Positions 14,120 to 55,944 of a stretch of DNA of 64,000 nucleotides are shown here, piece after piece. Positions within the stretch are counted from its first letter, which is position 1, and every line of letters starts with the position of its first letter. The notes under the pieces were generated by a model. The model worked only from the letters and a program-made list of their open reading frames with translations, was not told the origin of the DNA and searched no databases. Origin of the DNA: Patescibacteria group bacterium (GTDB lineage Bacteria > Patescibacteriota > Patescibacteriia > UBA9570); NCBI GenBank assembly GCA_041665365.1, contig JBAYIY010000003.1, positions 68,260 to 132,259 of the forward strand, written 5' to 3'. Both the position numbers and the translations under genes were made by a program.

Positions 14120-14142
14120 AAAATTGATACAGTAGAGCCCTT

Positions 14143-35305: not shown

Positions 35306-35875
35306 ATGGTAAAGAAAAAAATAATAAAACAAGTTTTATTCACAAGTATTTTGTTGTTGACCATTGTACCGACAATTACACAAGCAAAGAATTTATTGCA
35401 TAATGGTAACTTTAAATCAATGAGATATTGGGTGATTTCTGGAAAATGTCAAAGAAATCCTGATACTTGTATTCGCGAAAGAATTCCGACAGACTTAAAT
35501 AAGTACAGAGCAGTTTCGCATTATTTCCGCTTTGGTCATGTTAATACAACCGATTCAATTTCTCAAATTGTTAAACTTAGTAAACACAAACTGAAATTAA
35601 AATTTAAATTAAAATTCTTCAATACGTCTGGGAAACACTATAAAAGTGATTTATTTAGCATTATTGTAACCGGTAAAGGGATTGATCGTAGTTGGCGGAA
35701 AGATATTGCATACAATCCCAAAAAACATGGTTGGCAGCAACTAGATTACAATTTGCATAAAATTGCTAAAATAAATCAAGGTGAAGATATTGTTGTTAGT
35801 TTTTTTGTGAAAAATAATAATAGGGGCTTAAGTAAAGCACAAATTACAAATGTTAGATTAATACAGAGTAATTAA
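35306..35875 (+). CDS. Secreted hypothetical protein
   Basis: It has a signal peptide (MVKKKIIKQVLFTSILLLTIVPTITQA) and is Lys-rich. Confidence 0.35.
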   Translation: MVKKKIIKQVLFTSILLLTIVPTITQAKNLLHNGNFKSMRYWVISGKCQRNPDTCIRERIPTDLNKYRAVSHYFRFGHVNTTDSISQIVKLSKHKLKLKFKLKFFNTSGKHYKSDLFSIIVTGKGIDRSWRKDIAYNPKKHGWQQLDYNLHKIAKINQGEDIVVSFFVKNNNRGLSKAQITNVRLIQSN

Positions 35876-35901
35876 TTGATGCAAAGCTTGTTAGAGGCCA
35901 T

Positions 35902-38900
35902 TTAGAAAGTACCAGTCATAATGTAGGTAATATCAGTGGTGTAGGTGCCGGGTTCGGTGGTGGAAGCAATGTTGGCTAGATAGTAAGCGCTGATGGTTTC
36001 TGTTGTGGTAGTACCAAGCTCACTAAAGAACGGAGTAGTTGCTCCAGCGACGAATTTATATTCAGGTGCACCACCCGTAGCATTATAATCGGCAACGATA
36101 GAACCATCACCATTCGTAGTGATACCAAAGGCAAACTGTTCACTGTTCGGTGAACCATCCGTATCATTTGTAACCGTGGCAGCACTAATGGTGTCTAAAT
36201 CGGTATTGGTGAGTGTAGTGCCAAGATATGTTATAACATACCCACTGGCGGCACTACTAAAGATGGTGAAAGTATGAGCAACGGTTGGGGTAGTGTCAAA
36301 ACCGACTAAATCTCCAGTGGCAAACCGGGCGTTGGACGTGGTCAGATCGCCAAAACCAACCGTAGTGTCGCTGATGGCGAATGTAAGAGATTCAAAATTC
36401 CAACAGGTGTTTCCTGTAGAATTAAGATTAGAAACAGCCGTACCATCTATGTTGGGTGCTTGTCCACAAGCATCAGAATCTTTGACATCAGTATTATATA
36501 TTGAACGAGTACCAACAACGTTTAGGTTCCAATCTGTCGCGGCGATAGAGCTACGTAAGGCTACGCGGGTAGTAATGGTCTGTCCGTTGAAAGAGACGTT
36601 TTGGAATGTGTATGTTCCCCCAGCTAGAAAACGAAGTTTAGTACTGGCCGTCGTTGCCGTGAAGTTACCGGCTGTAGTGGCCGAGGCAGAAAAAATGACA
36701 GATGGTGATACGTCTGGATCAGTGCCTGATGTATTGGTGATGGTTAGATTATTAAAATCAGAGCTACCAGTCATTGTACCATCGAGAGTTTGTTGTGAAC
36801 CTCCAGCTAGGGTGACTGTACTAGAGTTATCGGTGAAGGTTCCAGAATTTGTGTAATTTCCATTGATATTCAACTGGTTTGTACTGTTCGCGGATAGGGT
36901 GGTGCCAGCTCCTATGGTGAGCGCACCGGCAATGGTGGTAGTAGGATCACTAACGTTAAGTTCTAAAGTTTCCGTACCAGCTCCGGAGCGAGAGAGATCA
37001 AGGGTAGATGAAAAGTTCAGTGTCCCTGCAGCCGCGGTTACCGCCCGAGCGACTCCGCTACTGTTATAAATTTCTACTGCACCACCGTATGTTCGAGCAC
37101 CCATAGCTTGGCTATTATTGACTGAATCAAAACGTAACACAGCGGAGATGGTGCCAGTGGTAGGGAAGTTGGTTGGGCTTTGATACGTCAGTTTCCCAGC
37201 CCCAGAAATGGTACCATTCAAGATTAATGTTGCACCACTGTGCGTAAGTACAACACCTGAACTTAAGGCCAACGAATCACCTGTATCGACGTTCAGCGTG
37301 TTTGTCACAGAAGTACTATTTGATAGAGTTGTGGCAGCAGAACTAGCAGTACCAATGATTAAGTTATAAAAATTCAGAGTTGGTGTAGTCCCGCCGCCAA
37401 TCGAACCTGTTCCGGTCATGGTCACAGTAGGTGTACCGGCAGATTTTGTGACGATAGCCGACGTTCCAGCTGTTGTAATATCTCCACCGGTTACAGCAGT
37501 GTCTGCATCAATGTTAAGCGTGGCACCGCCATCCACCAAAAGATCTCCGGCAATGGTATTTGTTGCGGTATCTAGATAAGCCGTAGCATTATCATCCACA
37601 TGCATATTTGCACTAGTAGTAGTAACCGTGCCACCCGGATCATATGATTTACTATCTTTAATATGTAATTCCATGCCGGAATCAACAGCTATATTGCTTC
37701 CAGTCATCCCATAAAGAATACCAGCGTCACCATTATCGGCGGTGATTAAGTTCGCATTAGTGATGGGTCCAGCGCTTTCGTGTGTCAGCACAACTCGGTC
37801 GCGGTAAATATCCAAATTACTAATAGCAGATCCATCAGCTGCCAGTGTAATGGTTGTGCCATCGGGCGTTTCTCCGCTATCAATAAATACGACAACTGGT
37901 TGCCCGGCTGCTGGTGTAGTAGCTGTTACCGTATATGCACCAGTATCTGCAGAACAGCTGCCATCTGCATTAGCTCCGCCGTTTACTGATACATGAATAG
38001 TTAATGGATCGGCGTTACAATCGTAGACTGTGGATTCGTTTGTGCCGCGGATAAATCCTGTAATGGCAACTCCCGCGGTACAGGTCCAATTCGTGTTACC
38101 AGAATCGCAATAGTTTGTCCCATTAGTCGCGTCAATCACTGCTCCGGAAAGGGTTGCGTTAGAATCCTTGACATTGGTATTGGAAACAGACCGTGTGCCA
38201 GTGGCCGCAAGCAGCCAAGCTGATCCGGTGGAAGAAGAGCGTAGAAATACTCTGGATGAGATGTCCAACCCATCAAACATAATATTGGTCAGTGTATAGG
38301 TGGAGGTAGCATTGAAACGAATTTTTACATTCGCTTCGGTTGCGGTAAAGGTACCGGCCGTGGTGGCCGCAGTAGAAAAAATAACAGAAGGAGAAGCATC
38401 AGGGTCAATACCAGAATTATTCGTAATAGTCAAAGCATTAAAATCAGAGGTGCCAGTCATAGTCCCGGCCATAGTTTGTTGGCTACCACCAACCAGAGAT
38501 ACAGTTCCAGAATTGTCCGTGAAAGTTCCATTATTGGTGTAATTCCCGCTAAGATTCAATGTGGCCGGAGCGCTAAACACAGTTGTTGCACCTATCGTCA
38601 GGTCGCTAGCAACTGCCGTAGTTCCGGTCGCTGCACTTAAATCAGTCGTTACCTCTCCGGCTCCACCGGCGGCAGTTGTAAGCGTTGAGGAAAAGATATA
38701 ATTCCCAGCCGCGGCTGTGATGGATTTGGCTGCTCCATTATTAGCGTAGAGTTCAACTGCCCCGCCGTATGTTCGTGCATCAAAGGTAGTATTAGCTATG
38801 CTGGCGGTACTAGCATCGTATCTCACCACAGATGACAAGGTACCAACCGCTCCAGGACCACTTGAGGTATTAAGGATGCGCAATGTGCCGGTACCAGAAA

Positions 38901-41900
38901 TTGTCCCATTCAAAGTCAGTGTAACTCCGCTGTGTGTCAGCATGACCGTGGTGATGGTAAGAATGTCGCTGGTATCAACATTAATAGTACCGGCAGCTGT
39001 ACAATTATCTGTTTGCATAGTCCAGGTGCCACTACCATCGCTGCCAATAAAGGTCACACTACTAAATGAAGAGGTTCCGCACTCTATCGTGTTATCAGTA
39101 TCGGCCGCATCAAAAATGACAGTTCCACTGGAATGCGTAAACGTCGCATTGTTATCCCAGTTACCACCTACATTAAATGTTCCAGTACCAGATGCAATCA
39201 GAGTGGCAGCGGCTGAAATAGTGATATTACCATTCACATCAAAGGTTGGATCATTTGTGTCTAAATTAAAAATACCGGCCGTGGCACTATCACCGACCAC
39301 CAAATTACCCAATACTGAAAACGTTCCACCACCGTTGGCATGAAAAGTGACCGCGCCGCTCGGCCGTACGCTCAAATTCCAATAGGATTCAAGTTGAATA
39401 TCCGTGGCTGCGTTACCAATGAAATCCACAGTTGAGTTTGTTCCCTCGTTTAAGGTGCCGGAGACAATAAATGGACGAGAAGCACCTTGCCCAGAACCAG
39501 TCAGGGTAAGGGTATAGCCAGATGATCCTAGTGCTAATGTGTCACCCGTTGTGACATCAACCTTCGTTGCTCGAGCATTCCCTGTTAATGTCACTGTTGA
39601 TGGTGCACCATTGATGGAAACTAAGCCAATATCTTGCCCAGATGAAGCATCAGACCAATTAGCTGCTCCGCCGTCAAATGTCCAGGTAGCGGTTCCGTTA
39701 TCGGCTTTAGTGACCAAGCCACTGGCGCCGATAGTTACGTTACCGGTCGTAGTTACATTCGGGTCGAGCACGGCCAAATCCAAGTCACCGTCCGTGATGG
39801 TAAAAGTACCGTTCACATCCAGATTGCCATCAACGTTCAGATCATCTGTTGCACCAGCACTGCCGGTGTTATTAAGTGTAATATCTTGGTAGGTCTCAGC
39901 GCCCGTCGTAAATGTTTGAGCGGCCGACGTGCTGTTGAATGTAATAATACCGCCGGTGGTAGCAGTGTATGCCGCGGAACCCGCCACAATAAAATCTCCG
40001 GACACGGTGATGCTGTTGTTATTTGCAGTCCAATTGCCAACGCCAGTCGTCGCAGTATCGCCGATTTCGATGTGAGTGGAAGTCACATCACCGCCGCCAG
40101 CAGAAGCCGGTTGGAAGGTATCGCCATCATCAATGTATAATTCTTCCTGACTAGATTGTGCTTCCGCATCCACCGTTAGATCGTTATCGACACTGACATC
40201 CCAAAACACATCGTCATCGCCGATAGCAACTGAATTGTCATAGACACCAACATCGCCATTGGTGATAGTTTGACCATCGACACTACCAATAGTGAGGTGT
40301 TCCTTAAACAAAGGGATGTTCGTCATGTCACCACTGCCATCGTATTTCGCCACTGCCCCGGATCGATCGGACATACTAGCAGCCGCATCAACCCATACCG
40401 TTACGATTTGACCGGTGGTAACTGTGACACCAGTGACTTCCCATGTACCAGCAATCACAGTATCTTCTTGCGCTTGCACACTGCCATCCACTGCTACTTT
40501 AATTGTACCGATATCTGTACAGTCAGTAGATTGGTCGAACGCATCACATGTTCCTGAAACGGTGACGGTGGGTGCTACTAATGTAGTAGCTCCTGAAATT
40601 TCTCGATCGTAAGCTGGGCCGATGCCTCCAGTGGATACTGCTACATCCGTTGATGGGGTGGTAATTTCTAATTCAACGGTTTCACCAGCCGAGGCCCCAG
40701 ATGTGATATCTAGCACTACATAGACACACATGGTAGAGGTCGGTGTGATTGCGACAGAACCAGTGAAGGTTGATGTGCCATCAGCACTACTGAACCCATC
40801 GGTATCAGTAGAGCCGTATTGCGTTTCTGTACCGGCAAATGATTCACTCGAACAATTATAAGGAGCGCTGGTGTCCGGCTCGTAATAGAGTTTGATGTTA
40901 TCCAAATCAGCTTGAGCATCCACCGTGCCATACTCAGTAATCATGATACTGGTAATGTTGGCAGTGGCAAGTGACTCGTTGATGGAGAAGGCTCCACCCA
41001 TGGAATTACCCGTTGTGTTAATAGTGACAGAAGAGGTTTGTGTACCTAACACGTTGACATTGGCGGTGTTAGAAGCCCGAAAGGCAAAGTCATATGGCTT
41101 GGTCGGCAATGATGTGGTAAGCGTCGCACCGGTAGACAAATCTGCTTCCCAAGCTCCCATGGTGGCTGTTTGGGTTAACCAAGTGCCGGTGGAAGCACCA
41201 TTCCACAGTTGGGATTCAGGTACTAAATCCAGTGTAAGGTCTTCCGCATTGAGCATGATTTTGTCTGATGATGGATCTGGAGAAAGATCAATACCCGACG
41301 GAACGTCAGCCCAAACCCCCAAACCTGAACACGGCCCATTCGAATCTTCTGCCGCTGATAAGTTGGTGACTTGTTCAGTGGTACCGGCTCCGCCTTCAGT
41401 TAACAAACAGAGTGAAGCATCGTCTATGGTCTGGAATTGCCCGGCCGACACATCAAATACCATCCAACGTAGTGCTGTTTCAGATGTAGTCCCGTCACGC
41501 CAAGCAAACAAGGCTCGATCCCCACCACCTTGCTCCCATTCCACATCTATCCCCTGGGCAAAGCCATTACTGTTAATGTCAACGTCCATGGTGGTAGGCT
41601 GTGTAATGGTTGTCCAATCTGAACCGTTCCACATGTCCACATTCATGTCAGCCGTATTGGTAGAGGCAGTGTCCTGCACAATCACGGCAATATAGTCGTT
41701 ATTTGGGCTGTCCGCGATCCGTAACCACTGCACAGCAGCCCCAGGATCTGTCATGCCAGTAGTGTCCGACCAACCGCTGCCCACGGTGTAGGTTGAAGCG
41801 TCAATAAACGGCGCTGCAGTGACATCGCCATACACAATCATACCCTCACCAGAGGAACCTTCCCAAGCAACGTCAAAATCTTGGCGTGTGGAGAGGCCAT

Positions 41901-44178
41901 TTTCCGCATTGATCTGAGCGATGTCCTGCCAGGCTGACCCATCCCAGCGTGCGCCATACACACCAAGATTGGTCCCTTCCCGCCAGCCGCACAAAATATT
42001 ATCTGTCCCAGGATCTGATTCGCACTCCACCCAGCGCGCAACATCATTACCTTGGTCGACACCGGAATAGTCAATTGAAGATTCACCAGACCAACTAGCG
42101 CCATCCCAAGTTTGATATTTAAGTGCCCCGTCACCTGTGGAACTATTTTCGTAAACTACAATGGCATCACCCGTATCACTTTCATAAGCAATATCAAAGC
42201 CGCGGTAAACATCATTCGTGGTGCCAATACCAGTTTCAAAATCTCCGTTGGTCGGTGCGTTAGTGCCATTAATCCACGCCGAAGTCGGACCATTATAGAT
42301 CTGGACATCTAAATGACCAGAGGCATTCAGCCGCCCCATCGTATATTCATTTCGATTTGGTGCTGATTCAATAATAGTGTGATTCGTATCATCACTCGCG
42401 GTTTCGTCGTCTTGTAGTTGACTTTCAGCGCTTAAATCCGTTGTGCTCCAGGTGCGATAGTGAGGAGTGGTATTATTGGCACCATCTTCGTCATACACTA
42501 ATATGCCTGTACCATCAGGCGTATCCGATGCAATTTGCCATGCTCTATCCTCTTCCCACACAGTGTTGTCTGTGACTAACAATACTAATGGGCCAAGTAA
42601 ATAGAGTTCTGGACTGATGTCAGGGGCGTCAAAGGTATAGCTTAGCTCGTAGGTTTCACCTGCTGTCCAATTCACATCCCAGGTGATGGTTCCACGACTC
42701 ATGGCACCGTCACCTTGATTAGAGATGACAAAATCCTCTGGAAAAGATTCCTGGACGGTACCGACAAAATTCGCTCTGGGTGTTACGCTAAACTCCATAG
42801 TGTAGGGTGCCATTGGCCAAATTCTAGTTGGACCAACTCGTTCAACTTCAAACTCTGGAGCCTTTTCGACATCATAATAATCACTAATCTCGTATTCGCC
42901 ATTGGCGGTGGTGGCCGTTAATTGCAGTTCAAACCGCCCAGTTTCGGAACCGTTATCAAAATAGGTATAATAATCTGGCAGTTCTACCACCGTGTCGCCG
43001 GCACATTCACTGCTGTAGGTAATACTGCCATCATTGGTAGATAGAGTGGTAGCTGTTCCAAGCGGAGAAGTGATAATTAAGTCCAGTTCGGCATCACATA
43101 ATGTGTGACCAGTTTCGTCCAACACTCCCATTTGAATAAAGGCTTGATCATCGGGGGCGAAGGTTCCTTGATTAACGTTGATGGTTAATACTCCCCAACT
43201 AAAGTCACGGGTGATAGTGGTTGTTTTTCCATTTTCATCGACAGTGATTGAAAAAGTATATTTTCCTGGTTTAGTAAAGTTATTTGTTCTGAGTTTATAC
43301 TCGGCATTTGAGTAACCATCCTTGGTTGTATTCTGTAAGTCATATTCAGGAGTTATAGTCTGACCATCCGGATCAATCAGTTCAATTTGTTCAACTGTGC
43401 GTTGCTCAGTAGTAAAACCTAGTTTTCCCCAAAAATCCTCATCTTTAATACCCGCTACAGTAACACTAGGTGTTTGGCCTTGTTCAAAATCGGGAGCGGG
43501 TAGTGTGATTGCTTCGTCAAGTGATGGTTTTTCAGGACGTTGAAACTCTAACTGTACTGCCACACCATCCAGCAACGCTTGTGTGGATTGGTCTGTGGGC
43601 ACCGCATCATATGCAACTTTGATTTTTAGTTGAGACAACGTGGTTTGAATATTATTTGCATCTAGGGTTAAGGGATATGTCCAATACCCACCATGTTTCG
43701 CATTATCATTATCCTCAACGAAGGCGAAAGAATCCAATGGTAGCCAAGTGTTGTCAGTTGTTTGGACAAATAATGAGACAACGTCTTCATTGTCCGTATA
43801 TCCATCAAGCGCGAGAGAAAAAATAACCTCAACTTTATCCAGTGTTTGTCCATCAGGAATGTTACTAGGCCAAACAAAGTCAGAACACACAATACTTGGA
43901 TTGGCTGTAGTTATCTGTTCCGCTGGTTGATTATAAAAGACAGCCGAGTTTTGTTCAGAAAATTGTTTTTTTCCGTCACTGCCTAATAAATCAATCGTGG
44001 TAGCCTGAGCCGCATGTTCCCAACCGACGCAATTAGTCGGTTGAACAGTTAAGGTTAGGCTGTTATTTTTCTCGGCCTTAACTGAAGGTATTGTTTTCCA
44101 ACCAATCAACAAGATAATAAAAAAGATCACTAAACTAAAGGTGCTAGGTAAGTTACGTTGATGTCTAAGTGCAGCCAT
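35902..44178 (-). CDS. Giant (~2,760 aa) secreted Thr/Gly/Ser-rich surface protein (putative adhesin) with internal ~340-aa duplications and a conserved ~165-aa C-terminal domain
   Basis: It is a single uninterrupted ORF. The preferred start is the ATG (MAALRHQ...) just after the upstream stop, followed by a hydrophobic signal or anchor. Two ~340-aa segments are about 70% identical. The last ~165 aa are homologous to the C-terminus of ORF 45616-46677. Confidence 0.7.
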   Translation of the reverse strand: MAALRHQRNLPSTFSLVIFFIILLIGWKTIPSVKAEKNNSLTLTVQPTNCVGWEHAAQATTIDLLGSDGKKQFSEQNSAVFYNQPAEQITTANPSIVCSDFVWPSNIPDGQTLDKVEVIFSLALDGYTDNEDVVSLFVQTTDNTWLPLDSFAFVEDNDNAKHGGYWTYPLTLDANNIQTTLSQLKIKVAYDAVPTDQSTQALLDGVAVQLEFQRPEKPSLDEAITLPAPDFEQGQTPSVTVAGIKDEDFWGKLGFTTEQRTVEQIELIDPDGQTITPEYDLQNTTKDGYSNAEYKLRTNNFTKPGKYTFSITVDENGKTTTITRDFSWGVLTINVNQGTFAPDDQAFIQMGVLDETGHTLCDAELDLIITSPLGTATTLSTNDGSITYSSECAGDTVVELPDYYTYFDNGSETGRFELQLTATTANGEYEISDYYDVEKAPEFEVERVGPTRIWPMAPYTMEFSVTPRANFVGTVQESFPEDFVISNQGDGAMSRGTITWDVNWTAGETYELSYTFDAPDISPELYLLGPLVLLVTDNTVWEEDRAWQIASDTPDGTGILVYDEDGANNTTPHYRTWSTTDLSAESQLQDDETASDDTNHTIIESAPNRNEYTMGRLNASGHLDVQIYNGPTSAWINGTNAPTNGDFETGIGTTNDVYRGFDIAYESDTGDAIVVYENSSTGDGALKYQTWDGASWSGESSIDYSGVDQGNDVARWVECESDPGTDNILCGWREGTNLGVYGARWDGSAWQDIAQINAENGLSTRQDFDVAWEGSSGEGMIVYGDVTAAPFIDASTYTVGSGWSDTTGMTDPGAAVQWLRIADSPNNDYIAVIVQDTASTNTADMNVDMWNGSDWTTITQPTTMDVDINSNGFAQGIDVEWEQGGGDRALFAWRDGTTSETALRWMVFDVSAGQFQTIDDASLCLLTEGGAGTTEQVTNLSAAEDSNGPCSGLGVWADVPSGIDLSPDPSSDKIMLNAEDLTLDLVPESQLWNGASTGTWLTQTATMGAWEADLSTGATLTTSLPTKPYDFAFRASNTANVNVLGTQTSSVTINTTGNSMGGAFSINESLATANITSIMITEYGTVDAQADLDNIKLYYEPDTSAPYNCSSESFAGTETQYGSTDTDGFSSADGTSTFTGSVAITPTSTMCVYVVLDITSGASAGETVELEITTPSTDVAVSTGGIGPAYDREISGATTLVAPTVTVSGTCDAFDQSTDCTDIGTIKVAVDGSVQAQEDTVIAGTWEVTGVTVTTGQIVTVWVDAAASMSDRSGAVAKYDGSGDMTNIPLFKEHLTIGSVDGQTITNGDVGVYDNSVAIGDDDVFWDVSVDNDLTVDAEAQSSQEELYIDDGDTFQPASAGGGDVTSTHIEIGDTATTGVGNWTANNNSITVSGDFIVAGSAAYTATTGGIITFNSTSAAQTFTTGAETYQDITLNNTGSAGATDDLNVDGNLDVNGTFTITDGDLDLAVLDPNVTTTGNVTIGASGLVTKADNGTATWTFDGGAANWSDASSGQDIGLVSINGAPSTVTLTGNARATKVDVTTGDTLALGSSGYTLTLTGSGQGASRPFIVSGTLNEGTNSTVDFIGNAATDIQLESYWNLSVRPSGAVTFHANGGGTFSVLGNLVVGDSATAGIFNLDTNDPTFDVNGNITISAAATLIASGTGTFNVGGNWDNNATFTHSSGTVIFDAADTDNTIECGTSSFSSVTFIGSDGSGTWTMQTDNCTAAGTINVDTSDILTITTVMLTHSGVTLTLNGTISGTGTLRILNTSSGPGAVGTLSSVVRYDASTASIANTTFDARTYGGAVELYANNGAAKSITAAAGNYIFSSTLTTAAGGAGEVTTDLSAATGTTAVASDLTIGATTVFSAPATLNLSGNYTNNGTFTDNSGTVSLVGGSQQTMAGTMTGTSDFNALTITNNSGIDPDASPSVIFSTAATTAGTFTATEANVKIRFNATSTYTLTNIMFDGLDISSRVFLRSSSTGSAWLLAATGTRSVSNTNVKDSNATLSGAVIDATNGTNYCDSGNTNWTCTAGVAITGFIRGTNESTVYDCNADPLTIHVSVNGGANADGSCSADTGAYTVTATTPAAGQPVVVFIDSGETPDGTTITLAADGSAISNLDIYRDRVVLTHESAGPITNANLITADNGDAGILYGMTGSNIAVDSGMELHIKDSKSYDPGGTVTTTSANMHVDDNATAYLDTATNTIAGDLLVDGGATLNIDADTAVTGGDITTAGTSAIVTKSAGTPTVTMTGTGSIGGGTTPTLNFYNLIIGTASSAATTLSNSTSVTNTLNVDTGDSLALSSGVVLTHSGATLILNGTISGAGKLTYQSPTNFPTTGTISAVLRFDSVNNSQAMGARTYGGAVEIYNSSGVARAVTAAAGTLNFSSTLDLSRSGAGTETLELNVSDPTTTIAGALTIGAGTTLSANSTNQLNINGNYTNSGTFTDNSSTVTLAGGSQQTLDGTMTGSSDFNNLTITNTSGTDPDVSPSVIFSASATTAGNFTATTASTKLRFLAGGTYTFQNVSFNGQTITTRVALRSSIAATDWNLNVVGTRSIYNTDVKDSDACGQAPNIDGTAVSNLNSTGNTCWNFESLTFAISDTTVGFGDLTTSNARFATGDLVGFDTTPTVAHTFTIFSSAASGYVITYLGTTLTNTDLDTISAATVTNDTDGSPNSEQFAFGITTNGDGSIVADYNATGGAPEYKFVAGATTPFFSELGTTTTETISAYYLANIASTTEPGTYTTDITYIMTGTF

Positions 44179-44179
44179 C

Positions 44180-45523: not shown

Positions 45524-45615
45524 AATTTTTTATGATTGGCTACAGGTTTATGTGAGGGGTTGATCTCGATTGTATTGTGTGCTATAATAATCCCATTATA
45601 ATAATAATAAAAATT

Positions 45616-46677: not shown

Positions 46678-46703
46678 AACTTTTTTCTTAGAAATTTGAA
46701 ACG

Positions 46704-47714: not shown

Positions 47715-48603
47715 ATTTTCATTTGCAGTGAAGGAAGTGACTAAACAACAAATTCGTTTTCTTCTGACTGTATTATGTGTTAGTTCAAGTTTTTTTATTT
47801 CGCAGCCACTTTTAACTCAGGCCATTGGTGTTAGTTTGACTGCTACAGTGACTGGATCCTCACCAGAAGAGCCAATTACAACCGTCATTATTGAGGGGTT
47901 TGCTTATCCAACAACTAATGTTTCTATCCGAGAAAATGGAAAAATAATAGCGATTACTCCAGCTGACTCCCAAGGATGGTTCACTGTGACCATTAACAAC
48001 ATTAATCCAGGTATTTATACTTTCTCTGTCCACGGGGAAGACATAAAAGGACGAAAAGGCCCAGATATAAATGTTACTGTGGCTATAAGCAAAGGAGTGA
48101 CCATTACCATCTCTGGTATTTATTTAGGGCCAACCATTGCAATTACTCGTAATAATATTTTTTTAGATGAAATAACTACAATACTTGGCACTAGTGTTTC
48201 AGATAGTCGCGTCAACATATTTATTAAGGCAGAAAATAATCAGCAGACAATTTTTAATAAACAGGCTAATCATAACGGGTTTTACTCAAAATCCATCTTA
48301 GGTAGTACTGTAGGCGAGGGTAGATACACAACTTATAGTCGTGTCGTTGCGTCAGACGGAACAATTTCTGATCCTAGTAAAACACTTGTCTTTACTGTTT
48401 CGAATGAAGCAAACACCTCAACTTGCGCCAACTCTTTAGATAGTGATATTAATTGTGATGGGGAAGTAGATTTGATAGATTTTAGCGTCTTGTTGTATTG
48501 GTGGAATCAGGCTAATCCGAGTAATGCCCGGGCCGATATCAATGGCAATGGGTTAGTTGATGTGGTGGATTTTAGTATCATGTTATATTATTGGACCGGA
48601 TGA
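47698..48603 (+). CDS. Secreted Ig-like protein with a C-terminal type-I dockerin domain
   Basis: It has a signal peptide. The C-terminus DSDINCDGEVDLIDFSVLLYWW...DINGNGLVDVVDFSIMLYYW is the canonical duplicated calcium-binding dockerin repeat. Confidence 0.7.
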   Translation: MDRVNKFSFAVKEVTKQQIRFLLTVLCVSSSFFISQPLLTQAIGVSLTATVTGSSPEEPITTVIIEGFAYPTTNVSIRENGKIIAITPADSQGWFTVTINNINPGIYTFSVHGEDIKGRKGPDINVTVAISKGVTITISGIYLGPTIAITRNNIFLDEITTILGTSVSDSRVNIFIKAENNQQTIFNKQANHNGFYSKSILGSTVGEGRYTTYSRVVASDGTISDPSKTLVFTVSNEANTSTCANSLDSDINCDGEVDLIDFSVLLYWWNQANPSNARADINGNGLVDVVDFSIMLYYWTG

Positions 48604-48613
48604 ACTCATACCT

Positions 48614-49753
48614 ATGAAACGTTTTTTCGTGAATAGTTTTATTTATACTCTAAGTTGTAGCTTGTTACTTTTGTTAAATACTACGGCGGCCTCCGCAGCT
48701 AGCTTGTACTTTGAACCGAACACGGCTGTTTGGTCAGTAGGGTCAAACCAAATGATTAATCTTCATATTAGTAGTGATGGGGAGGTAGTGAACTTGGTGC
48801 AAGCGACTATTCAATATCCGCCAGATGTTGTGGAAGTTATTGCCGTGTATCACGGTGGATCATCGTTGACATTATGGCCAGAGGAACCAAGCATCAATGC
48901 TGCTGCTGGCAGCATCACTTTTGCAGCTGGTATACCGAATGGTAGTTTGATCGATACCGGGCAAGTATTAACTCTGGAAGTTCGTCCTAAACAGGCTGGT
49001 ACTGTGCAATTTAGCTTTAATCCAAATCAAACGGCTGTGTACTTGAATGATGGTCTGGCTACGCAGACTACTGTGTCATTCAAAGAGCCGGTTTACGATA
49101 TCATATCAGCCGCTCCTGTTAGTTTGATAGTGACTTCAGCAACGCATCCAGATGAAAATAAATGGTATCAACTTAATGAGTTTAGTGCACAGTGGGAGAA
49201 AAAACCCGATGCGTTATATAGCTTTCATGTCACATCTGATTTAGAACAACTACCTGATGACATTGCAGATGATACCCCACAAGTTGTGACCGGGGAATAT
49301 ACTATCTCCAATTTGTCTGATGGAGTGCATTATTTTATGATTAAAGAATGGTTATCCAATGAAGCTGGCTGGGCAGAACCAGTGATTCGAAAAATTATGG
49401 TGGACAGTACACCACCGACTTCATTTATCCCGCTCGTAAGTCAAACAGAACATGAATTTAACGGTCAGCCATTTCTTGTTTTCGATACCAGTGATTCCGT
49501 TTCTGGTATTGATCATTATGAAATAGTTAAAGGGGGAACAACCACTATTATAACGAAAGGACCTTACCAGTTGGAACAAAAAGATATTACGCAACCAATA
49601 CTGATTCGAGCAGTAGATGCAGCAAACAATAGTACGACCGTATATACTGGAGAGAACGCCACTAATATTAGGCGCAATTATTTTTGGCCAATAACGGCAT
49701 TGGTGGCATTTTTGGCGTTACTACTAGTATATTTGAAAACTCGATTATCCTAA
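48614..49753 (+). CDS. Cohesin-domain cell-surface protein with a C-terminal transmembrane anchor (paralog of 44180-45523)
   Basis: The cohesin-like block is VQATIQYPPDVVEVIAVYHGG...GQVLTLEVRPKQAGTVQF. The conserved middle domain contains SGIDHYEIV. The C-terminal anchor is WPITALVAFLALLLVYL. The ATG at 48614 is preferred. Confidence 0.7.
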   Translation: MKRFFVNSFIYTLSCSLLLLLNTTAASAASLYFEPNTAVWSVGSNQMINLHISSDGEVVNLVQATIQYPPDVVEVIAVYHGGSSLTLWPEEPSINAAAGSITFAAGIPNGSLIDTGQVLTLEVRPKQAGTVQFSFNPNQTAVYLNDGLATQTTVSFKEPVYDIISAAPVSLIVTSATHPDENKWYQLNEFSAQWEKKPDALYSFHVTSDLEQLPDDIADDTPQVVTGEYTISNLSDGVHYFMIKEWLSNEAGWAEPVIRKIMVDSTPPTSFIPLVSQTEHEFNGQPFLVFDTSDSVSGIDHYEIVKGGTTTIITKGPYQLEQKDITQPILIRAVDAANNSTTVYTGENATNIRRNYFWPITALVAFLALLLVYLKTRLS

Positions 49754-49904
49754 CTATTGTATTTGGGATTATTATAATTCACGGACAGTAACATCTTTTA
49801 GATAAGGTTTTGTACTAACTGTATAATTTCTCTAACTCTTCTTAAACAACTTTGATTTTTTCCAGTAGGTGACTTTATATCAATAAATCAGTATAATATG
49901 CCGT

Positions 49905-52900
49905 ATGGTTTGGCAACGTCATAACATGAATTTCAGCGTTTTTCCAGTATTTGTTAGTGTTGTTGTTTTTGGATTGTTATCAGCGCACTCCGCGTTAGCA
50001 GCCACCTACACCGTCAGTAAAACTGCGGATACCAATGATGGCACTTGTGATGCAGATTGTTCGTTACGTGAAGCGATTACAACAGCCAATGGTGCTTCCG
50101 GCAATAGCATTGAGTTTAATATCAATGGCGGCACGGATGCTGGCTGTACCGGTGCCGGTGGGGTTTGTACGATTACTCCTGCCAGTGCCTTACCAGATAT
50201 TACCGGCGCCTCAATGACAATCAATGGGTATACTCAAACTGGAGCAGTCGCTAATACTACAGCCAATGGCAGTGTTGTGACTGGTATCAATGGATTAAAT
50301 ACAACTTTACGAATCGTGCTGGATGGTACCTCAGCCGGTGGAGCAGCTAATGGACTAAAAATCAATGGGGTAGCTAATGTAGTAATTAAGGGCTTAGACA
50401 TAATGCGCTTTGGTAGCAATGGTGTGTTGGCTACGGGAGCAGGAGCGACTAACTTGAAAGTGCAGGGTTGTTTTATTGGAACAGATGTTACCGGAACACT
50501 GGATCAGGGAAATTCTGGCAATGGAGTAGCGGCTGTCACTGGCGCTACAGTTATCGTGGGTACCGATGGTGATGGTGTGACTGACGTAGCGGAACGTAAC
50601 TTGATCTCTGGCAATAGTACTTATGGCATTAACATTGCCGGTGGCACAGGTAGTAAAGTTTCAGCGAATATAATTGGCCTAGCTAGTGATGCCAGCACTG
50701 ATCTGGGTAACTTAGGTAACGGTGTTTATGCAACAGTCTCATCAACCATCATCGGCACCAATGGTGATGGCACCAGCGATACGATTGAAGGCAATATTGT
50801 GTCAGGGAATGATCAAAGTGGGATTAACATTAATGGTGGTGGTTCAGATACTATTACTGGTAATATTGTCGGTCTGAATGGTGTTGGCACCACTACTGTC
50901 CGCAATACTTTGAATGGTATCTTGTTGTTTGGCACCGGTTCGAATCGAGTGGGCACCAATGGCGATGGTGTCAGTGATACCTATGAAAGAAATGTTTCAT
51001 CCGGTCATTCTGGTAATTTTTATTATGGCTTAGAGGTGATTAGTCCAAGTAATACTGTGGCGGGAAATTATTTTGGCACGGATATTACCGGTACAGTCCT
51101 GCATGGAAATTTACGTAATGTACTTGTATCCGGCAATAATAATATTATTGGCACAAACGGCGATGGTAATGGAGATACCGTAGAAGGCAATGTCATAGCT
51201 GGTGGTACTGGCGCCGATGGTCTGTATATCAGTACCGTGGCAACTATCACAGTTGCGGGCAATAAGATTGGTACAGATTATTCAGGCACAGCCGCGCTGG
51301 GCAATACCCATGGTATTCGGATTGATGGAACAGATTCAGGCATTGTAATTGGTACCAATGCCGATGGTGTGTCCGATAGTGCCGAGCGCAACATTATTTC
51401 CGGTAATCAGGTGGGTATTTTCATGGAACAAGGGTCTTCCAATACTGTGATTGCCGGTAATTATATTGGTTTGAATACTGCTGGTACGGGCACAGTTGGT
51501 GGCTCATATGGTGGTAATCGCTATGGTATTAGTATTGGTCGAATATGGCCTGGGGCGGGTACATCCAGTGACAATCGTATCGGTACGAATGGCGATGGGG
51601 TGAATGATGCCGCTGAGGCTAATGTTATTTCTGGTAATTATACTTATGGAGTGGTCATGGCCACCGGCAATAGTAATACGATCGCTGGCAACTATATTGG
51701 CACCGGTCCAGATGGAGTGACAGAGTTTGCTAATGGTGAAGCAGGCATTGCGTGGTACGATGGTGCTCCTGACGTTTCCAATAGTTCAAGTAACACTATT
51801 GGTGGTGATACTATAGCTGAAGGCAATGTTATTGCGTCTAACGGTTCTTATGGTATTGAACTAAGCGGGGTATCCAGCGATGGCAATTTAATTAGCCATA
51901 ATAAGATGTTTTCTAATCTACTTGAAGGTATTTTTCTTCCCGGTGATGGCTCAAATAATGATATGAGTGCCCCAGTCATTACTAGTTGGGCACCAAGTGG
52001 ATCAGATTTAACTATTTCCGGAACCGCTCCGGCCAGTGCGGTAGTTGAATTATTTGATGCCTCCACCGATGAAGGAGAAACCTATCTTAATGCCGCCACT
52101 GCGAATGGGTCTGGTAATTGGTCAACTACGATCAGTGCCCCCTATACAGCGGCTAATAATACTTTGGTCGCAACCGCCCGAGATGGCAGCAATGATACAT
52201 CCATGTTTAGTGCTGTGTATACTATCACGGATATAGCGCCGACTACACCAACCGATCTGCAAACCTCCAGTCTGTTTGGGGGTTGTGGATCAGATAGTAC
52301 TCCAGAGTTTTCTTTTACGTTAACAGATAGTGATGTCGTAGATACGGTTGGTTATCACATTCAGATAGATAATGATGCAGATTTTTCATCACCCGTGGTT
52401 GATTACAACTCAGGGTTAGCTGCTCAAGGCACAGCCTCATTTGTAGTTGGCCAAGCCGTTGGCTCTGGTGTATATACCACTGGTTCTGCTGGACAAACGT
52501 TAACAGACGGAAGTTATTCTATGCGGGTGCAAACCATTGATTTTCTTAGTCAAACATCAGCTTATGTCACACAAACATTTGGAGTTGATAATGGTGTCAC
52601 AGTTAGTACACCCGCATCAGCCACCACATCCGAATTAGGTGATACAACTACTTTCACAGTGGTGTTAGCTTGTCTGCCACAAAATGACGTGACTATACCT
52701 GTAGTCAGTTCAGATACCACTGAAGGTAGTGTTTCCACGGCGGCACTCACTTTTACTACTGGAAACTGGAATGTGGCACAAACTATTACAGTGACAGGAG
52801 TAGATGATTCTAGTTCAGATGGTAACATTAATTATTCAATCCAATTAGGTCCAACCACTTCGAGTGATACGGCTTATAGTGGGGTCACCATAGCTGATGT

Positions 52901-55673
52901 GTCACTGACTAATATTGATGAAGATTTACCACCACAGTTTTCTGGTACCATTCCGGATCAAACTTGGGATGAAGATACTACTTTAACTAATGTCTTTAAT
53001 TTGGATGATTATTTTACTGATCCCACCACAGAGGGGCTTAGTTACAGTGTGGCCGGGGCTGACAATATTACAGTGACAATTGGGAGTGATGGACAGGTAA
53101 CGCTTGTTCCTGATGCGGATTGGCATGGTACGGATACAATGAAATTTGTGGCGCAAAATTCTATTGGGCAAACTAAGTCTAATCAGGTAACTCTGACAGT
53201 AGAAAGTATTAATGATGCACCAGAAGCGCCCACCATTTTTTCGCCGTGTTGTCAGGATGTGACAGCTTCATTGTCGCCGACTATTTCCTGGCAAGCAGCC
53301 TCTGATCCGGATCATACTACAAGTGAATTGTCGTATGAGATACGGTTCGGTTCGGATGCTGATCCGCAAAATAATTATCATTTTACAGCTAGTACTTCTG
53401 CCGGTAGTAAATCTGTAAAAATTTCTCCAGATTTAACTGATGAGAAGACCTATTACTATGTGGTACGAACCATTGATCCACTGGATGCTAAGTCAAATTG
53501 GTCTGAGATACAAAGCTTTTCCACCAATGTCAGTTATAGTCCTGACCTACAGTTAGCCAAAACGGTAGAATTACCGGCCGAACAGATTGCTTGGTTTGGC
53601 ATCAACTTTGCTGCCTTATTCTTGATCCAACCAGCTCAGGCCAGTGGGTTTGCGATTATTAGTCCAGACCAAATCGCTGACCAATCGTTCATGGTGTTAA
53701 TCGGATCACTGACGATATTACTCTCCGCCGCGCTGGTTATATTAGGATTGGCTCGTCATCCGAAAAATTTCGTGACAGCCTTACTACACGATGTGCCAGT
53801 GGCATTTAAGCGGATTCATAAATCGGGTCATGGCACTATCACCACTTCGTATACGAGTTTCAGACGTCGGTTAGTAACCGCTCGTAGTATTATCTATCTG
53901 GCAGCGCTTGTGTTTGTTCCTGCCCTCGTCATTAATGGATTACATGCCGAAGTGAGTAACTGGTTACAGCGGGTACAAACGGTCAGTACCACTATACAAC
54001 CAGGTGAAACTATGACTATATCACTCAGTTATAGCAATACAGGTGATGGTGACGCTACCAGTGTGGTGTTGTCTGATACGATCCCTGGCGAAACAACTTT
54101 GCTCAGCAGTTCGATACCGGCCACACAACAGGCCGACCAGATCAGTTTTGACCTGGGCACCATCCCGGTAGGTGGCACAGGCACAGTCAGCTATCAGTTG
54201 GGTGTAGCCGAACCTTATGATCATGATTCAATAGTACTTGATCCGGCAGAATTAATCGCTAACGAAATAACGGCCTCGGTGTTGTCGGATAGTGTGGTAG
54301 TCCCTGTAGTATCCGGCACTATCTCTGGCCAAGTAACTGATGGCGCTGGTGTTGGAATCACCAACGTGTTGATCACATTACAATGGGGCGATCAACAAAC
54401 CTTCTCAACACTCACCGATGCTAATGGGTATTATGTATTGAGTGGCTTAGCGAGTGGGGATTATGTAGTGACGGCCTACACACAACAAAAAACGACTAGC
54501 TTGACCCGTGGTGGTAGTGCCACTGTTAATTTCAGTTTTGTCAGTAGTAGCATCCGTCAAGACAACACGAATACAAACACTGACACCACTACTGACACCA
54601 CTACTGACACCACGACGGATGTCAAAACTCCAAAACCTATCAAGTTAACGCCAGAGCAGCAAGAGTTGGTGGATAATTTTGTGGTCACAGATTTAAATAA
54701 TGAAGTATTACCAGAGAATCAAGCGGTGATATATCTGACCGATGATCCAAGCTCAGTTCCAACGGGTGCATTAGCCTTGCCGACCGCAACCGAAACATTA
54801 ACCTTTCGTGGCACCACTGTACCGAATAGTACCATTACGATCCAAATTTGTTATACCATTTTAACGACTACTAGTGATGAAACCGGCGCCTGGATTATGG
54901 TAGTGCCGCGCGACTTATTACTCCAAGGTGATAATGTGATTACCGCCAGTGTCACACAAGGTAATGTGGAAGTAGACCAAATTGTGGTAGCACACGTCAA
55001 TGTAGATAATGCACCTACGGCTCAGTCGACCAATTATTGGATAAATTTTATTGCCATCGCTTTATTACTACAGTTGAATATAGCCGCCTGGATAGTGTTA
55101 CGCGTTCGGCACAGTAGTACGACGCTGTCTAGCAAATTGATTTTACTTCACCTGGTGACCGTGGTGGTAGTGGTCATCTTTTTGTTTGTGCCGGTGCCGC
55201 AAAGTCGGCAGGTGCAAGCGCGTGGGCATTTACGCCAAACCAATATCATGGCTAGATTGGTGAATAACCAACCATTGACTGATCAGTATATCACTTTTCA
55301 GGACACGCAAGCCTTAGAATTAGTGGGTTCAGCTTCAGCCGACCAACAGTATAGTGTCTCGATTTGTCCCAATCAACCATTCCGTTATGTGACCACCAAT
55401 CATGCTGGTCAGTGGAGTTTGATTCTACCGGTGAGTGTACTGCCCAACTTCGATGTGACAGTAGCGATGCGATCAGCGACCGATACGACTCAAACTGAAG
55501 AGCAGTTAGTGGATCTCAATGTGCAAGAAAAATATGATACGGTGACGCTATGGCGTTGGATAGTATTAGCCTTGATTGCCAGTGGGGCGTTTATTACAGT
55601 GGGGAATTGGTTCATCGTGTATCGGACAGTGCACAAACCAAAAAGTAAAGAAGTAAAGGAGAATATGGCTTAG
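49905..55673 (+). CDS. Giant (1,922 aa) parallel-beta-helix repeat surface protein with FN3/Ig-like, DUF11-like and CarboxypepD_reg-like domains and several predicted transmembrane segments
   Basis: The signal peptide is followed by more than 15 repeats of the N-x-I-S-G-N beta-helix type (IGTNGDG...NxISGN). Other domains present include DAPEAP (cadherin/FN3-like), GTISGQVTDGAGVGITN...YYVLSGL (CarboxypepD_reg) and a (TDTT)n repeat. Hydrophobic helices occur around aa 1235-1300 and 1700-1900. An alternative start is at 49926. Confidence 0.7.
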   Translation: MVWQRHNMNFSVFPVFVSVVVFGLLSAHSALAATYTVSKTADTNDGTCDADCSLREAITTANGASGNSIEFNINGGTDAGCTGAGGVCTITPASALPDITGASMTINGYTQTGAVANTTANGSVVTGINGLNTTLRIVLDGTSAGGAANGLKINGVANVVIKGLDIMRFGSNGVLATGAGATNLKVQGCFIGTDVTGTLDQGNSGNGVAAVTGATVIVGTDGDGVTDVAERNLISGNSTYGINIAGGTGSKVSANIIGLASDASTDLGNLGNGVYATVSSTIIGTNGDGTSDTIEGNIVSGNDQSGININGGGSDTITGNIVGLNGVGTTTVRNTLNGILLFGTGSNRVGTNGDGVSDTYERNVSSGHSGNFYYGLEVISPSNTVAGNYFGTDITGTVLHGNLRNVLVSGNNNIIGTNGDGNGDTVEGNVIAGGTGADGLYISTVATITVAGNKIGTDYSGTAALGNTHGIRIDGTDSGIVIGTNADGVSDSAERNIISGNQVGIFMEQGSSNTVIAGNYIGLNTAGTGTVGGSYGGNRYGISIGRIWPGAGTSSDNRIGTNGDGVNDAAEANVISGNYTYGVVMATGNSNTIAGNYIGTGPDGVTEFANGEAGIAWYDGAPDVSNSSSNTIGGDTIAEGNVIASNGSYGIELSGVSSDGNLISHNKMFSNLLEGIFLPGDGSNNDMSAPVITSWAPSGSDLTISGTAPASAVVELFDASTDEGETYLNAATANGSGNWSTTISAPYTAANNTLVATARDGSNDTSMFSAVYTITDIAPTTPTDLQTSSLFGGCGSDSTPEFSFTLTDSDVVDTVGYHIQIDNDADFSSPVVDYNSGLAAQGTASFVVGQAVGSGVYTTGSAGQTLTDGSYSMRVQTIDFLSQTSAYVTQTFGVDNGVTVSTPASATTSELGDTTTFTVVLACLPQNDVTIPVVSSDTTEGSVSTAALTFTTGNWNVAQTITVTGVDDSSSDGNINYSIQLGPTTSSDTAYSGVTIADVSLTNIDEDLPPQFSGTIPDQTWDEDTTLTNVFNLDDYFTDPTTEGLSYSVAGADNITVTIGSDGQVTLVPDADWHGTDTMKFVAQNSIGQTKSNQVTLTVESINDAPEAPTIFSPCCQDVTASLSPTISWQAASDPDHTTSELSYEIRFGSDADPQNNYHFTASTSAGSKSVKISPDLTDEKTYYYVVRTIDPLDAKSNWSEIQSFSTNVSYSPDLQLAKTVELPAEQIAWFGINFAALFLIQPAQASGFAIISPDQIADQSFMVLIGSLTILLSAALVILGLARHPKNFVTALLHDVPVAFKRIHKSGHGTITTSYTSFRRRLVTARSIIYLAALVFVPALVINGLHAEVSNWLQRVQTVSTTIQPGETMTISLSYSNTGDGDATSVVLSDTIPGETTLLSSSIPATQQADQISFDLGTIPVGGTGTVSYQLGVAEPYDHDSIVLDPAELIANEITASVLSDSVVVPVVSGTISGQVTDGAGVGITNVLITLQWGDQQTFSTLTDANGYYVLSGLASGDYVVTAYTQQKTTSLTRGGSATVNFSFVSSSIRQDNTNTNTDTTTDTTTDTTTDVKTPKPIKLTPEQQELVDNFVVTDLNNEVLPENQAVIYLTDDPSSVPTGALALPTATETLTFRGTTVPNSTITIQICYTILTTTSDETGAWIMVVPRDLLLQGDNVITASVTQGNVEVDQIVVAHVNVDNAPTAQSTNYWINFIAIALLLQLNIAAWIVLRVRHSSTTLSSKLILLHLVTVVVVVIFLFVPVPQSRQVQARGHLRQTNIMARLVNNQPLTDQYITFQDTQALELVGSASADQQYSVSICPNQPFRYVTTNHAGQWSLILPVSVLPNFDVTVAMRSATDTTQTEEQLVDLNVQEKYDTVTLWRWIVLALIASGAFITVGNWFIVYRTVHKPKSKEVKENMA

Positions 55674-55913: not shown

Positions 55914-55944
55914 CGAAGTCCTGAAGTTGCTGAAGGACGTAGTT

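Follow-up and report, generated by a model that had tools for sequence, protein, structure and literature searches.

Background

Do eight adjacent genes that all encode exported or membrane-anchored proteins build one machine on the surface of a bacterium, and if so, of what kind? The question is raised by positions 35306-55673 of a 64,000-nucleotide stretch (hereafter the window) of contig JBAYIY010000003.1, from a Patescibacteria group bacterium, where the eight open reading frames (ORFs) are here called A to H in order. An earlier note on this DNA proposed that the entire 20-kb block encodes a single apparatus for attachment or episymbiosis. Our analysis narrows that proposal to the six genes B to G, which very probably form a cassette for a Pam-type pilus, a kind of fiber described in another bacterium of the Candidate Phyla Radiation (CPR). 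We think it fairly probable that this is an usher-less pilus built by donor-strand exchange, with a giant tip adhesin and a cohesin-dockerin membrane anchor.

Presumably CPR bacteria live attached to other microbes, but beyond type IV pili little is known of how they do so. The Pam pilus was described in 2026, without an adhesin, from one cultivated Saccharimonadota species, with two filaments of the CPR parasite Candidatus Mycosynbacter amalyticus studied by cryo-electron microscopy (cryo-EM) (Troman et al., bioRxiv 10.64898/2026.03.03.709456). According to the same preprint, a Pam pilin is composed of an N-terminal sandwich, a donated linker and a truncated immunoglobulin (Ig) acceptor domain that takes the linker of its neighbor; PamC and PamD are PapD/FimC-like chaperones with a C-terminal membrane helix; PamT is a tip subunit that lacks a linker; PamR is a terminator or anchor with an N-terminal strand and a membrane helix; and the system has no usher. 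Cohesins, dockerins, adhesins, giant proteins, WxL and DUF916 are not mentioned in that preprint, and a literature search on cohesin and dockerin in CPR bacteria returned nothing relevant.

A second system with a bearing on the locus is the WxL (Csc) cluster of Firmicutes, in which two proteins, one small and one large, have a common C-terminal domain and are encoded beside a membrane-anchored partner with two Ig domains (PMC10599100). This partner, WxLIP, consists of DUF916, DUF3324 and a membrane helix (PMC10599100; PDB 9i1y, 9i25), and it has been proposed to insert a strand into the shared C-terminal domain (PMC10599100).

Methods

Hydrophobic segments were located by Kyte-Doolittle scans, and domains were assigned with Pfam and NCBIfam models. 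Structures of D and E were modeled with AlphaFold2 and compared with the PDB using Foldseek. For comparative analysis, a sample of 78 loci around homologues of E was drawn from GTDB species genomes, and their ORFs were searched with pieces of A to H. The titles of these loci include Kerfeldbacteria, Uhrbacteria, Falkowbacteria, Peregrinibacteria, Microgenomatus and Parcubacteria. Individual loci of the sample are designated by L numbers where they need to be told apart.

Results

Layout of the cassette

The six genes comprise two divergent operons, with the following features, where CTD denotes a C-terminal domain shared by B and D.

35902-44178, - strand: B, giant secreted protein with signal peptide, variable head, repetitive region and CTD (ORF map 35902-44298; 2,798 amino acids (aa) if read from TTG)
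35905-36390, - strand: CTD of B (aa 2637-2798), 75% identical to the CTD of D
44180-45505, - strand: C, cohesin membrane anchor 1, with signal peptide, cohesin (~45116-45379), Ig-like domain and membrane helix (~44231-44350) (ORF map 44180-45523)
45506-45615, no strand: short intergenic region from which the C-B and D-E-F-G operons diverge
45616-46677, + strand: D, assigned as a pilin (ORF map 45577-46677)
~45706-46155, + strand: N-terminal beta-sandwich of D, after the signal peptide
46156-46191, + strand: linker of D, DDSVNITSTVNP, conserved; proposed donor strand
46192-46674, + strand: C-terminal acceptor domain of D (NF058581)
46704-47714, + strand: E, assigned as a membrane-anchored chaperone of the PamC/PamD and WxLIP type, with signal peptide, two Ig-like beta-sandwiches and C-terminal helix (same limits in the ORF map)
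47698-48603, + strand: F, proposed terminator or anchoring adaptor, with signal peptide, strand, Pro/Glu spacer, two Ig-like domains and dockerin (same limits in the ORF map)
47824-47859, + strand: mature N-terminal strand of F, IGVSLTATVTGS, with a motif shared with the pilin linker
~48445-48600, + strand: type I dockerin of F (Dockerin_1)
48614-49753, + strand: G, cohesin membrane anchor 2, with signal peptide, cohesin-like domain (~48695-49126), Ig-like domain and C-terminal membrane helix (ORF map 48557-49753)

An N-terminal hydrophobic, signal-like segment is present in all eight of the ORFs A to H, and C-terminal membrane segments were found in C (392-431), E (291-325) and G (374-398). 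The statement of the earlier note that every ORF between 35306 and 55673 carries a signal peptide and/or an anchor thus holds, as does its recognition of cohesin anchors, a dockerin protein and a shared CTD: C matches Pfam Cohesin, F matches Dockerin_1, G is a paralogue of C, and the two CTDs are 75% identical. No sortase motif is present in the eight proteins, and the Pfam and NCBIfam scans detected no usher-like domain among the proteins of the locus.

The start of B is most likely the ATG at 44178, one base past the stop codon of C, which gives a protein of 2,758 aa instead of the 2,798-aa TTG ORF. C and B are translationally coupled. Both strands have their best promoter-like sites in and around the 45506-45615 region: TTGATC-17-TATAAT with a TG element at 45560-45588 on the + strand, and a second site at 45622-45595 on the - strand. 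In the promoter and terminator scan of the locus, promoter-like sites were not enriched overall relative to shuffled sequences, and these sites are therefore a weak hint on operon boundaries.

The pilin and the shared C-terminal domain

D identifies the system. It matches the NCBIfam model NF058581 (CPR_Pam_pilin_C, 'Pam pilus system pilin subunit') at 57.5-57.8 bits against a cut-off of 55, as do all 78 sampled relatives of D, and it matches the PamT model weakly. Its AlphaFold2 model (predicted local distance difference test score (pLDDT) 93.4) contains two beta domains, with residues 181-193 between them lacking secondary structure. D thereby has the two-domain architecture of a Pam pilin, namely an N-terminal beta-sandwich, a single conserved linker strand and a domain at the C-terminus, and the linker, DDSVNITSTVNP, is among the best-conserved stretches of the D family. 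By its family match and domain order, D is assigned as a Pam-type shaft pilin.

The last 162 aa of B are ~75-76% identical to D, and the C-terminal 238 aa of B match NF058581 at 49.8 bits (E 3.7e-13). The earlier note took the shared CTD as the mark of parts of a single structure; its family assignment bears this out and identifies it as the acceptor domain of Pam-type pilins. A CTD profile search of the related loci found the domain in 106 ORFs, in all of them at the extreme C-terminus; in that search the CTD-bearing proteins of at least 600 aa never carried the pilin N-terminal domain. The domain is rare: only 358 proteins in a library of 1.84 billion representatives carry it at E up to 0.001. 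Among 150 of these 358 matches listed, it always lies within a few residues of the C-terminus, 73 proteins have the size of a pilin and 21 reach at least 1,000 aa.

PDB sequence searches with D and with a D-family profile yielded nothing useful. We considered whether the CTD might be a WxL domain and rejected this: WxL-domain Pfam models matched none of 78 D-family members even at E up to 1, and the last 165 aa of B and of D contain neither a tryptophan nor a W-x-L motif. A presumed resemblance in strand pattern between the CTD and the WxL domain is a lead only.

The giant protein

B begins with a hydrophobic segment (48-75) and a variable head, which includes W-[DN]-G-x-x-W repeats at aa 731-900, and continues with a long repetitive region rich in Thr, Gly, Ala and Ser. 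Giants of 30 related loci match its mid-region. Its match to the PamT model is weak (32 bits against a cut-off of 240), and B has ~2,600 extra residues.

Ahead of its CTD, B lacks a donor linker and has instead a segment containing Cys (ACGQAPNID...NTCWNF); the giants of related loci likewise carry ACGQxPDIDA...NxCWxF where pilins have their linker. In the 24 loci with a giant upstream of a pilin, the last 150-170 aa of the giant are 34-87% identical to the CTD of the nearby pilin (24/24). Between giant and pilin CTDs, the median identity is 66% in the same genome vs 38% between different genomes, and in 14 of 25 cases the giant CTD matches the pilin of its own genome best. The CTD of B itself is 76% identical to D and at most 52% identical to any other giant CTD. 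Giant and pilin CTDs thus evolve in concert, suggestive of gene conversion or tight co-evolution, as would be expected of domains that have a donor strand and a chaperone in common.

A subunit with an acceptor domain and without a donor linker could stand only at the distal end of a fiber. By analogy with the Pam and chaperone-usher mechanisms, B would thus take the distal position, and it is probably the tip adhesin of the pilus. The 2,760-aa adhesin of the earlier note is in this sense retained, with a length of 2,758 aa and the adhesin role as a proposal.

The chaperone

The AlphaFold2 model of E (pLDDT 91.7) has two beta-sandwich domains followed by a long helix at residues 301-335 (~47604-47708). 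A Foldseek search of the PDB returned Enterococcus faecium WxLIP (9i1y and 9i25; E 3e-10) first, one of these entries being bound to long WxL. The chaperone-usher chaperones Caf1M, CfaA, CsuC and DraB also appeared among the top 25, with further two-Ig proteins, the CEP192 SPD-2 domains for example, ranked between them. PF06030 (WxLIP_PGBD, formerly DUF916) is matched by 48 of 78 relatives of E, and an E-family profile weakly matched EfmWxLIP1 among PDB sequences (E 0.04). None of the NCBIfam Pam chaperone models matches E or its 78 relatives. By fold, E has the PapD/FimC-like domains and the C-terminal transmembrane helix of the published PamC and PamD; it likewise has the second Ig domain and membrane helix of WxLIP, together with PF06030 in its relatives. 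E is probably the pilus chaperone and fits the description of PamC/PamD, as far as its modeled fold can tell.

In the chaperone family, conservation is highest in the motif [PA]GGHYAx[IVL]F[FLW] (aa 120-135 of E), a strand with alternating hydrophobic residues. This may be the strand lent by the chaperone to the pilin's acceptor domain.

The affinity of E to WxLIP raises the alternative of a display system that does not polymerize, in which E would hold single copies of D and B by strand complementation and no fiber would form. That E is closest in fold to the WxLIP of E. faecium, with the long-WxL-bound entry among the matches, that PF06030 occurs in its relatives, and that a small and a large CTD-sharing protein accompany a membrane-anchored two-Ig protein, as in the logic of WxL clusters (PMC10599100), all speak for it. 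We nevertheless consider it unlikely, since D and B carry the CTD of Pam pilins, whose prototypes form filaments by cryo-EM, the interdomain linker of D is highly conserved, which a monomeric display protein would not need, and the CTDs have none of the WxL features searched for above.

Conservation in related genomes

About 40 CPR genomes share the cassette B to G (35902-49753; ~14 of the 20 kb) in synteny. Its genes usually follow one another as giant, pilin, in many cases a second chaperone, then chaperone, dockerin protein and two cohesin anchors. In relatives the giant has ~2,500-2,950 aa, the pilin ~360, the dockerin protein ~300, and the cohesin anchors ~390 and 430-840. The window contains one E, one F and the C/G pair, with B and D as its only CTD carriers; it thus has one chaperone, where many relatives have two.

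Of the 63 loci that extend 3.5 kb or more downstream of E, 39 have a dockerin protein like F. These 39 loci all have at least one cohesin anchor, and 38 of them have at least two. A CTD protein is present in 43 of 44 F loci. In the loci examined, F and the cohesin anchors were found only beside the pilin-chaperone pair. Because A and H are not conserved with the cassette, the functional unit is B to G and not the whole 20 kb.

Five loci (L051, L055, L057, L066 and L075; ~8700-14200 in each) have a variant cassette that lacks cohesin and dockerin. It comprises one or more pilins, a chaperone, a second type of pilin ending in ...VTYITTAQF, two membrane-anchored chaperones and a giant of ~2,000 aa, and it may be closer to the published Pam operon. 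The cassette also occurs on contigs assigned to Pirellulales, FCPU426 and Methylomirabilis metagenome-assembled genomes (L010, L039 and L053), and many loci are titled 'uncultured Gammaproteobacteria' or 'Saccharibacteria', with implausible titles among Third Party Annotation (TPA) assemblies. Mis-binning or placeholder names are a more likely explanation of the non-CPR titles than real occurrence outside the CPR.

The dockerin protein and the cohesin anchors

Both halves of a cohesin-dockerin pair score above their curated Pfam thresholds at this locus, with one cohesin per anchor. C matches Cohesin (PF00963) at 30.9 bits (cut-off 24.1), and its Ig-like domain matches Big_13 in Pfam and an OmpL47-type model in NCBIfam. 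G, which has no Pfam match of its own, aligns with its paralogue C over 363 aa (E 2e-27). F matches Dockerin_1 (PF00404) at 26.7 bits (cut-off 22.9), along with Big_6 and Big_13, and its dockerin has two canonical calcium loops, DINCDGEVDLID and DINGNGLVDVVD. Cohesin is matched by 21 of 45 C/G-like relatives, and Dockerin_1 by 16 of 16 sampled F-like proteins. Pfam and NCBIfam scans found no carbohydrate-active enzyme or carbohydrate-binding module at the locus, and a multi-cohesin scaffoldin is absent from it. PDB sequence searches gave nothing useful for C and G and only weak dockerin matches for F.

The mature N-terminus of F begins with a short strand, followed by a Pro/Glu-rich spacer and an Ig domain, an arrangement present in 43 of 43 F homologues (QVTVTATVPE is one such strand). 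The pattern V.[VIL][STG][AG].V is present in the linkers of 18 of 24 pilins, in 23 of 24 mature N-termini of F and in none of 24 giants, against a background of 0.33 per 1000 aa. The pilin linker and the N-terminus of F therefore share a motif that the linker-less giants do not have.

In genomes without cohesin and dockerin, the position right after E is usually occupied by other proteins. In L031, L032 and L069 the occupant has an N-terminal strand, an acidic/Pro spacer and its own C-terminal membrane helix, to which L031 adds FnIII-like sequence. With their N-terminal strand and membrane helix, these three proteins match the published description of PamR, with which they were compared by description. 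A PamR-like protein, with an N-terminal strand, FnIII-like domains and a C-terminal membrane helix of its own, is absent from the window. Because F and the PamR-like proteins share gene position and the N-terminal strand, F looks like an equivalent of PamR in which the membrane helix has been replaced by a dockerin, with C and G supplying the helix through their cohesins.

Proteins after E with a strand behind the signal peptide (such as ADEVNVSALVP) and an acidic/Pro spacer were located at 11017-12378 in L031, 11022-12392 in L032, 11155-13380 in L069, 10942-11406 in L074 and 10921-14001 in L071. The one in L074 has its own C-terminal membrane helix too.

Cohesin-dockerin pairs are common outside cellulosomes, where their roles vary. 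F, G and C could accordingly be a separate surface module beside a genuine pilus, with F displayed on the cohesin anchors and co-regulated with the fiber, to which it would not be joined. Besides this general precedent, the alternative draws on the nature of the link between F and the fiber, which consists of a short strand motif and gene position. It is rather improbable in our view, given that the pilin-chaperone pair accompanies every occurrence of F and the cohesin anchors in the loci examined, that L031, L032 and L069 have a strand protein with its own membrane helix in the same position, and that the cassette would then be left without a terminator or anchor, there being neither a sortase signal nor a PamR-like protein in the window.

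Neighboring genes

The two remaining ORFs of the block, A and H, are listed here with a nearby tRNA gene.

35306-35875, + strand: A, small secreted protein with a signal-like segment at 6-25 (same limits in the ORF map)
49905-55673, + strand: H, mosaic surface protein of 1,922 aa with ~5 membrane segments (same limits and length in the ORF map; segments by Kyte-Doolittle scan)
55945-56033, - strand: tRNA-Ser(GGA), ~270 nt downstream of H

A has no match in Pfam, NCBIfam or the PDB, and across the 78 loci its only homologue is in L001, the closest relative, beside a C-like gene. H combines NosD, CarboxypepD_reg, DUF11 and Big_9 matches in Pfam with a CSLREA N-terminus in NCBIfam, and is built of NosD-like beta-helix, Ig/cadherin-like, DUF11 and CarboxypepD_reg modules. 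Its membrane segments would put three separate stretches outside the cell. No homologue of H is present in the 78 related loci, and a full database search returned no full-length homologue, only partial matches to CSLREA/beta-helix giants from many phyla at a coverage of at most 57%. H was therefore rejected as a component of the cassette. It has promoter-like sites of its own at 49799-49897, and neither A nor H has a domain or motif in common with B to G. A and H are neighboring surface proteins and not parts of the B-G machine; H may have been acquired independently.

The genes that flank the block encode housekeeping proteins by Pfam (pyruvate kinase, pyruvate phosphate dikinase, MurJ, DnaG and RpoD), and an EngB-like GTPase at 34135-34722 was recognized from a reading of the sequence only. 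The guanine-plus-cytosine (GC) content is 0.46-0.50 in B (36000-42000) and 0.44-0.46 in H (50000-56000), and 0.32-0.44 over much of the window. The rise in B fits its composition, since Thr, Gly, Ala and Ser make up ~45% of its residues.

These data bear on the proposal of a single apparatus made of all eight proteins from 35306 to 55673. The proteins are adjacent and all exported or anchored, and A also lies beside a C-like gene in L001; with H in none of the 78 loci and lacking a full-length homologue, A in one only, no shared domain or motif, and separate promoter-like sites for H, we regard a machine that includes A and H as very improbable. That the block is strain-specific cargo, dispensable and brought together by chance from surface genes that do not work jointly, is scarcely credible, for although the GC content of B and H (0.44-0.50) exceeds that of much of the window and a tRNA gene lies beside H, the order of B to G is kept in dozens of genomes of several CPR lineages, the giant and pilin CTDs evolve in concert, the flanks are housekeeping genes and the shift in B fits its Thr/Gly/Ala-rich composition, so that this reading is refuted for B to G; H may be cargo of this kind.

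Other genes of the window were noted in passing. Directly upstream of A, 34763-35257 (+ strand) encodes a 164-aa multi-pass membrane protein with no family match, which is absent from the related cassettes. Downstream lie a MerR-type helix-turn-helix protein whose C-terminal part has no assignment (56393-57127, - strand), a protein with three MopE-type metal-binding motifs (57248-57940, + strand) and a C39-like peptidase adjoining MurJ (58598-59371, - strand). Four long ORFs of 552-744 aa (3599-5563, 18138-19796, 20750-22744 on the - strand, and 24133-26367) have no Pfam match at E up to 0.001.

Discussion

We propose the following course of assembly for a B-G pilus. Judging from the signal-like N-termini, all parts would be exported by Sec. 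E would reside in the cytoplasmic membrane through its C-terminal helix, as its fold and anchor segment suggest, and its two Ig-like domains would hold the incomplete CTDs of newly exported B and D, by analogy with WxLIP and the chaperone-usher chaperones. B would be the first and most distal subunit, displaying ~2,600 residues of adhesin at the tip. The linker of a D subunit would displace E on B and so initiate the fiber at its tip, after which further D subunits would join at the base, each placing its linker DDSVNITSTVNP in the acceptor domain of the subunit before it, by analogy with the Pam cryo-EM structures and consistent with the conservation of the linker. The free N-terminal strand of F, IGVSLTATVTGS, would cap the last D, and growth would stop there because F has no acceptor domain. 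Finally, the dockerin of F would bind the cohesin of membrane-anchored C and/or G and tether the fiber to the cell.

Confidence in this scheme differs between its parts. The assignment of B to G to a Pam-type cassette is the firmest. The complete anchoring model, with F as the cap and its dockerin on the cohesins of C and G, is evenly poised between right and wrong. The broader idea that the cohesin-dockerin pair is the membrane joint of a donor-strand-exchange pilus, with F capping the fiber, docking on the cohesin proteins and replacing PamR, is tentative, and we give it slightly less than even weight.

Several observations weigh against the pilus or its details. The whole model of D gave only generic two-Ig matches in a Foldseek search of the PDB (integrins and MSCRAMMs, template modeling (TM) score ~0.2), in a copy that held no Pam pilin structure. 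The CTD of B lies 5 bits below the NF058581 cut-off of 55. E itself has no Pfam or NCBIfam match, its link to WxLIP resting on its relatives and its fold, and the fold matches reach only moderate TM-scores (0.43-0.55). The motif shared by the pilin linker and F is a generic beta-strand pattern, and its counts overstate the independent support because conservation within a family reflects common descent. The C-B pair of the window is inverted relative to the common gene order. The Pam pili that have been imaged come from a Saccharimonadota species, and thus from a candidate phylum different from that of the window. Lastly, we infer polymerization, strand insertion and cohesin-dockerin binding for a cassette that is known here from its genes alone.

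The view of the earlier note that the proteins assemble into an attachment apparatus survives as the best reading of the six genes B to G, and does not extend to A and H; a single 20-kb unit is contradicted by the presence of A in L001 only and of H in none of 78 loci. The check that it had suggested, conservation of the block in related genomes, was carried out and yielded a conserved, collinear B-G core in many CPR genomes. The cohesin and dockerin modules that it named are present, and they probably form the membrane anchor of the fiber rather than a general assembly glue. Its 'anchored beta-rich protein', E, is indeed anchored and rich in beta structure; that E is a chaperone, and D a pilin, had gone unrecognized. 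Its placement of the organism among CPR-like bacteria proves correct, the source being a Patescibacteria group bacterium.

The kind of system, a Pam pilus, has been known since 2026 from one organism of a different candidate phylum. New relative to the Pam preprint and the literature found are the CTD-bearing giant adhesins, an anchoring module made of cohesin and dockerin, and the chaperone's affinity to WxLIP; a single chaperone is also outside the published Pam description. The Pam description gave no clear solution to anchoring outside the Saccharimonadota lineage. Kerfeldbacteria-like, Microgenomates, Peregrinibacteria and other CPR genomes have kept a related cassette, and the cohesin-dockerin pair offers a concrete, testable anchoring mechanism. 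The giant, fast-varying proteins are nominated as tip adhesins, and hence as candidate determinants of host specificity.

If the model is correct, wall-spanning fibers would be tethered in a new way, independent of sortase, usher and covalent linkage, and would carry adhesins of 2,000-3,000 aa as their tips. A chaperone of the WxLIP type would also unite the Pam pili of CPR bacteria with the WxL clusters of Firmicutes in a single ancient family of strand-complementation systems that work without an usher. Through this link to the WxL/WxLIP proteins of lactobacilli, enterococci and Listeria, both fields would gain a common mechanistic frame.

Comparison with known systems

The locus shares with the cellulosome a Pfam cohesin and a type I dockerin with two calcium-binding loops, as well as the division into a cohesin carrier that is fixed to the cell and a dockerin carrier that is secreted. 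It differs in lacking glycoside hydrolases, carbohydrate-binding modules and a multi-cohesin scaffoldin. Its anchors are C-terminal membrane helices and not S-layer homology (SLH) or sortase signals, and the proposed cargo is the base of a pilus.

With the chaperone-usher pili (Pap/Fim, Caf1, CFA/I and Csu) it has in common the two-domain Ig-like chaperone fold. Donor-strand complementation and exchange, a tip adhesin and a non-accepting terminator comparable to PapH are further likenesses proposed for the window. In contrast to those systems, the window has neither an usher nor an outer membrane, and its chaperone is membrane-anchored, not soluble. The pilin has two domains, and an internal linker takes the place of an N-terminal extension as the donor strand, F being the exception.

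WxL clusters are alike in cluster logic, and WxLIP is the closest structural match of E, whose family matches PF06030. Unlike WxL domains, the CTD of the window has no W-x-L motif, no tryptophan and no WxL Pfam match, and WxL proteins are thought to be monomeric on peptidoglycan and not to polymerize. We know of no WxL cluster described with cohesin or dockerin partners.

The closest relative is the Pam system, from which the window departs in four respects. Its tip candidate is a 2,758-aa adhesin, whereas PamT is a single-domain protein. It has one pilin gene and one chaperone, compared with three pilins and two chaperones in Pam. In place of PamR it has a dockerin-ended protein with an N-terminal strand and two cohesin membrane anchors, and its lineage lies near Kerfeldbacteria, in the Parcubacteria group, and not in Saccharimonadota. 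Common to both are a linker-less acceptor subunit (B, compare PamT), assembly with neither usher nor sortase signal, the architecture of the pilin, the NF058581 acceptor domain, a chaperone with two Ig domains and a membrane helix, and a CPR host.

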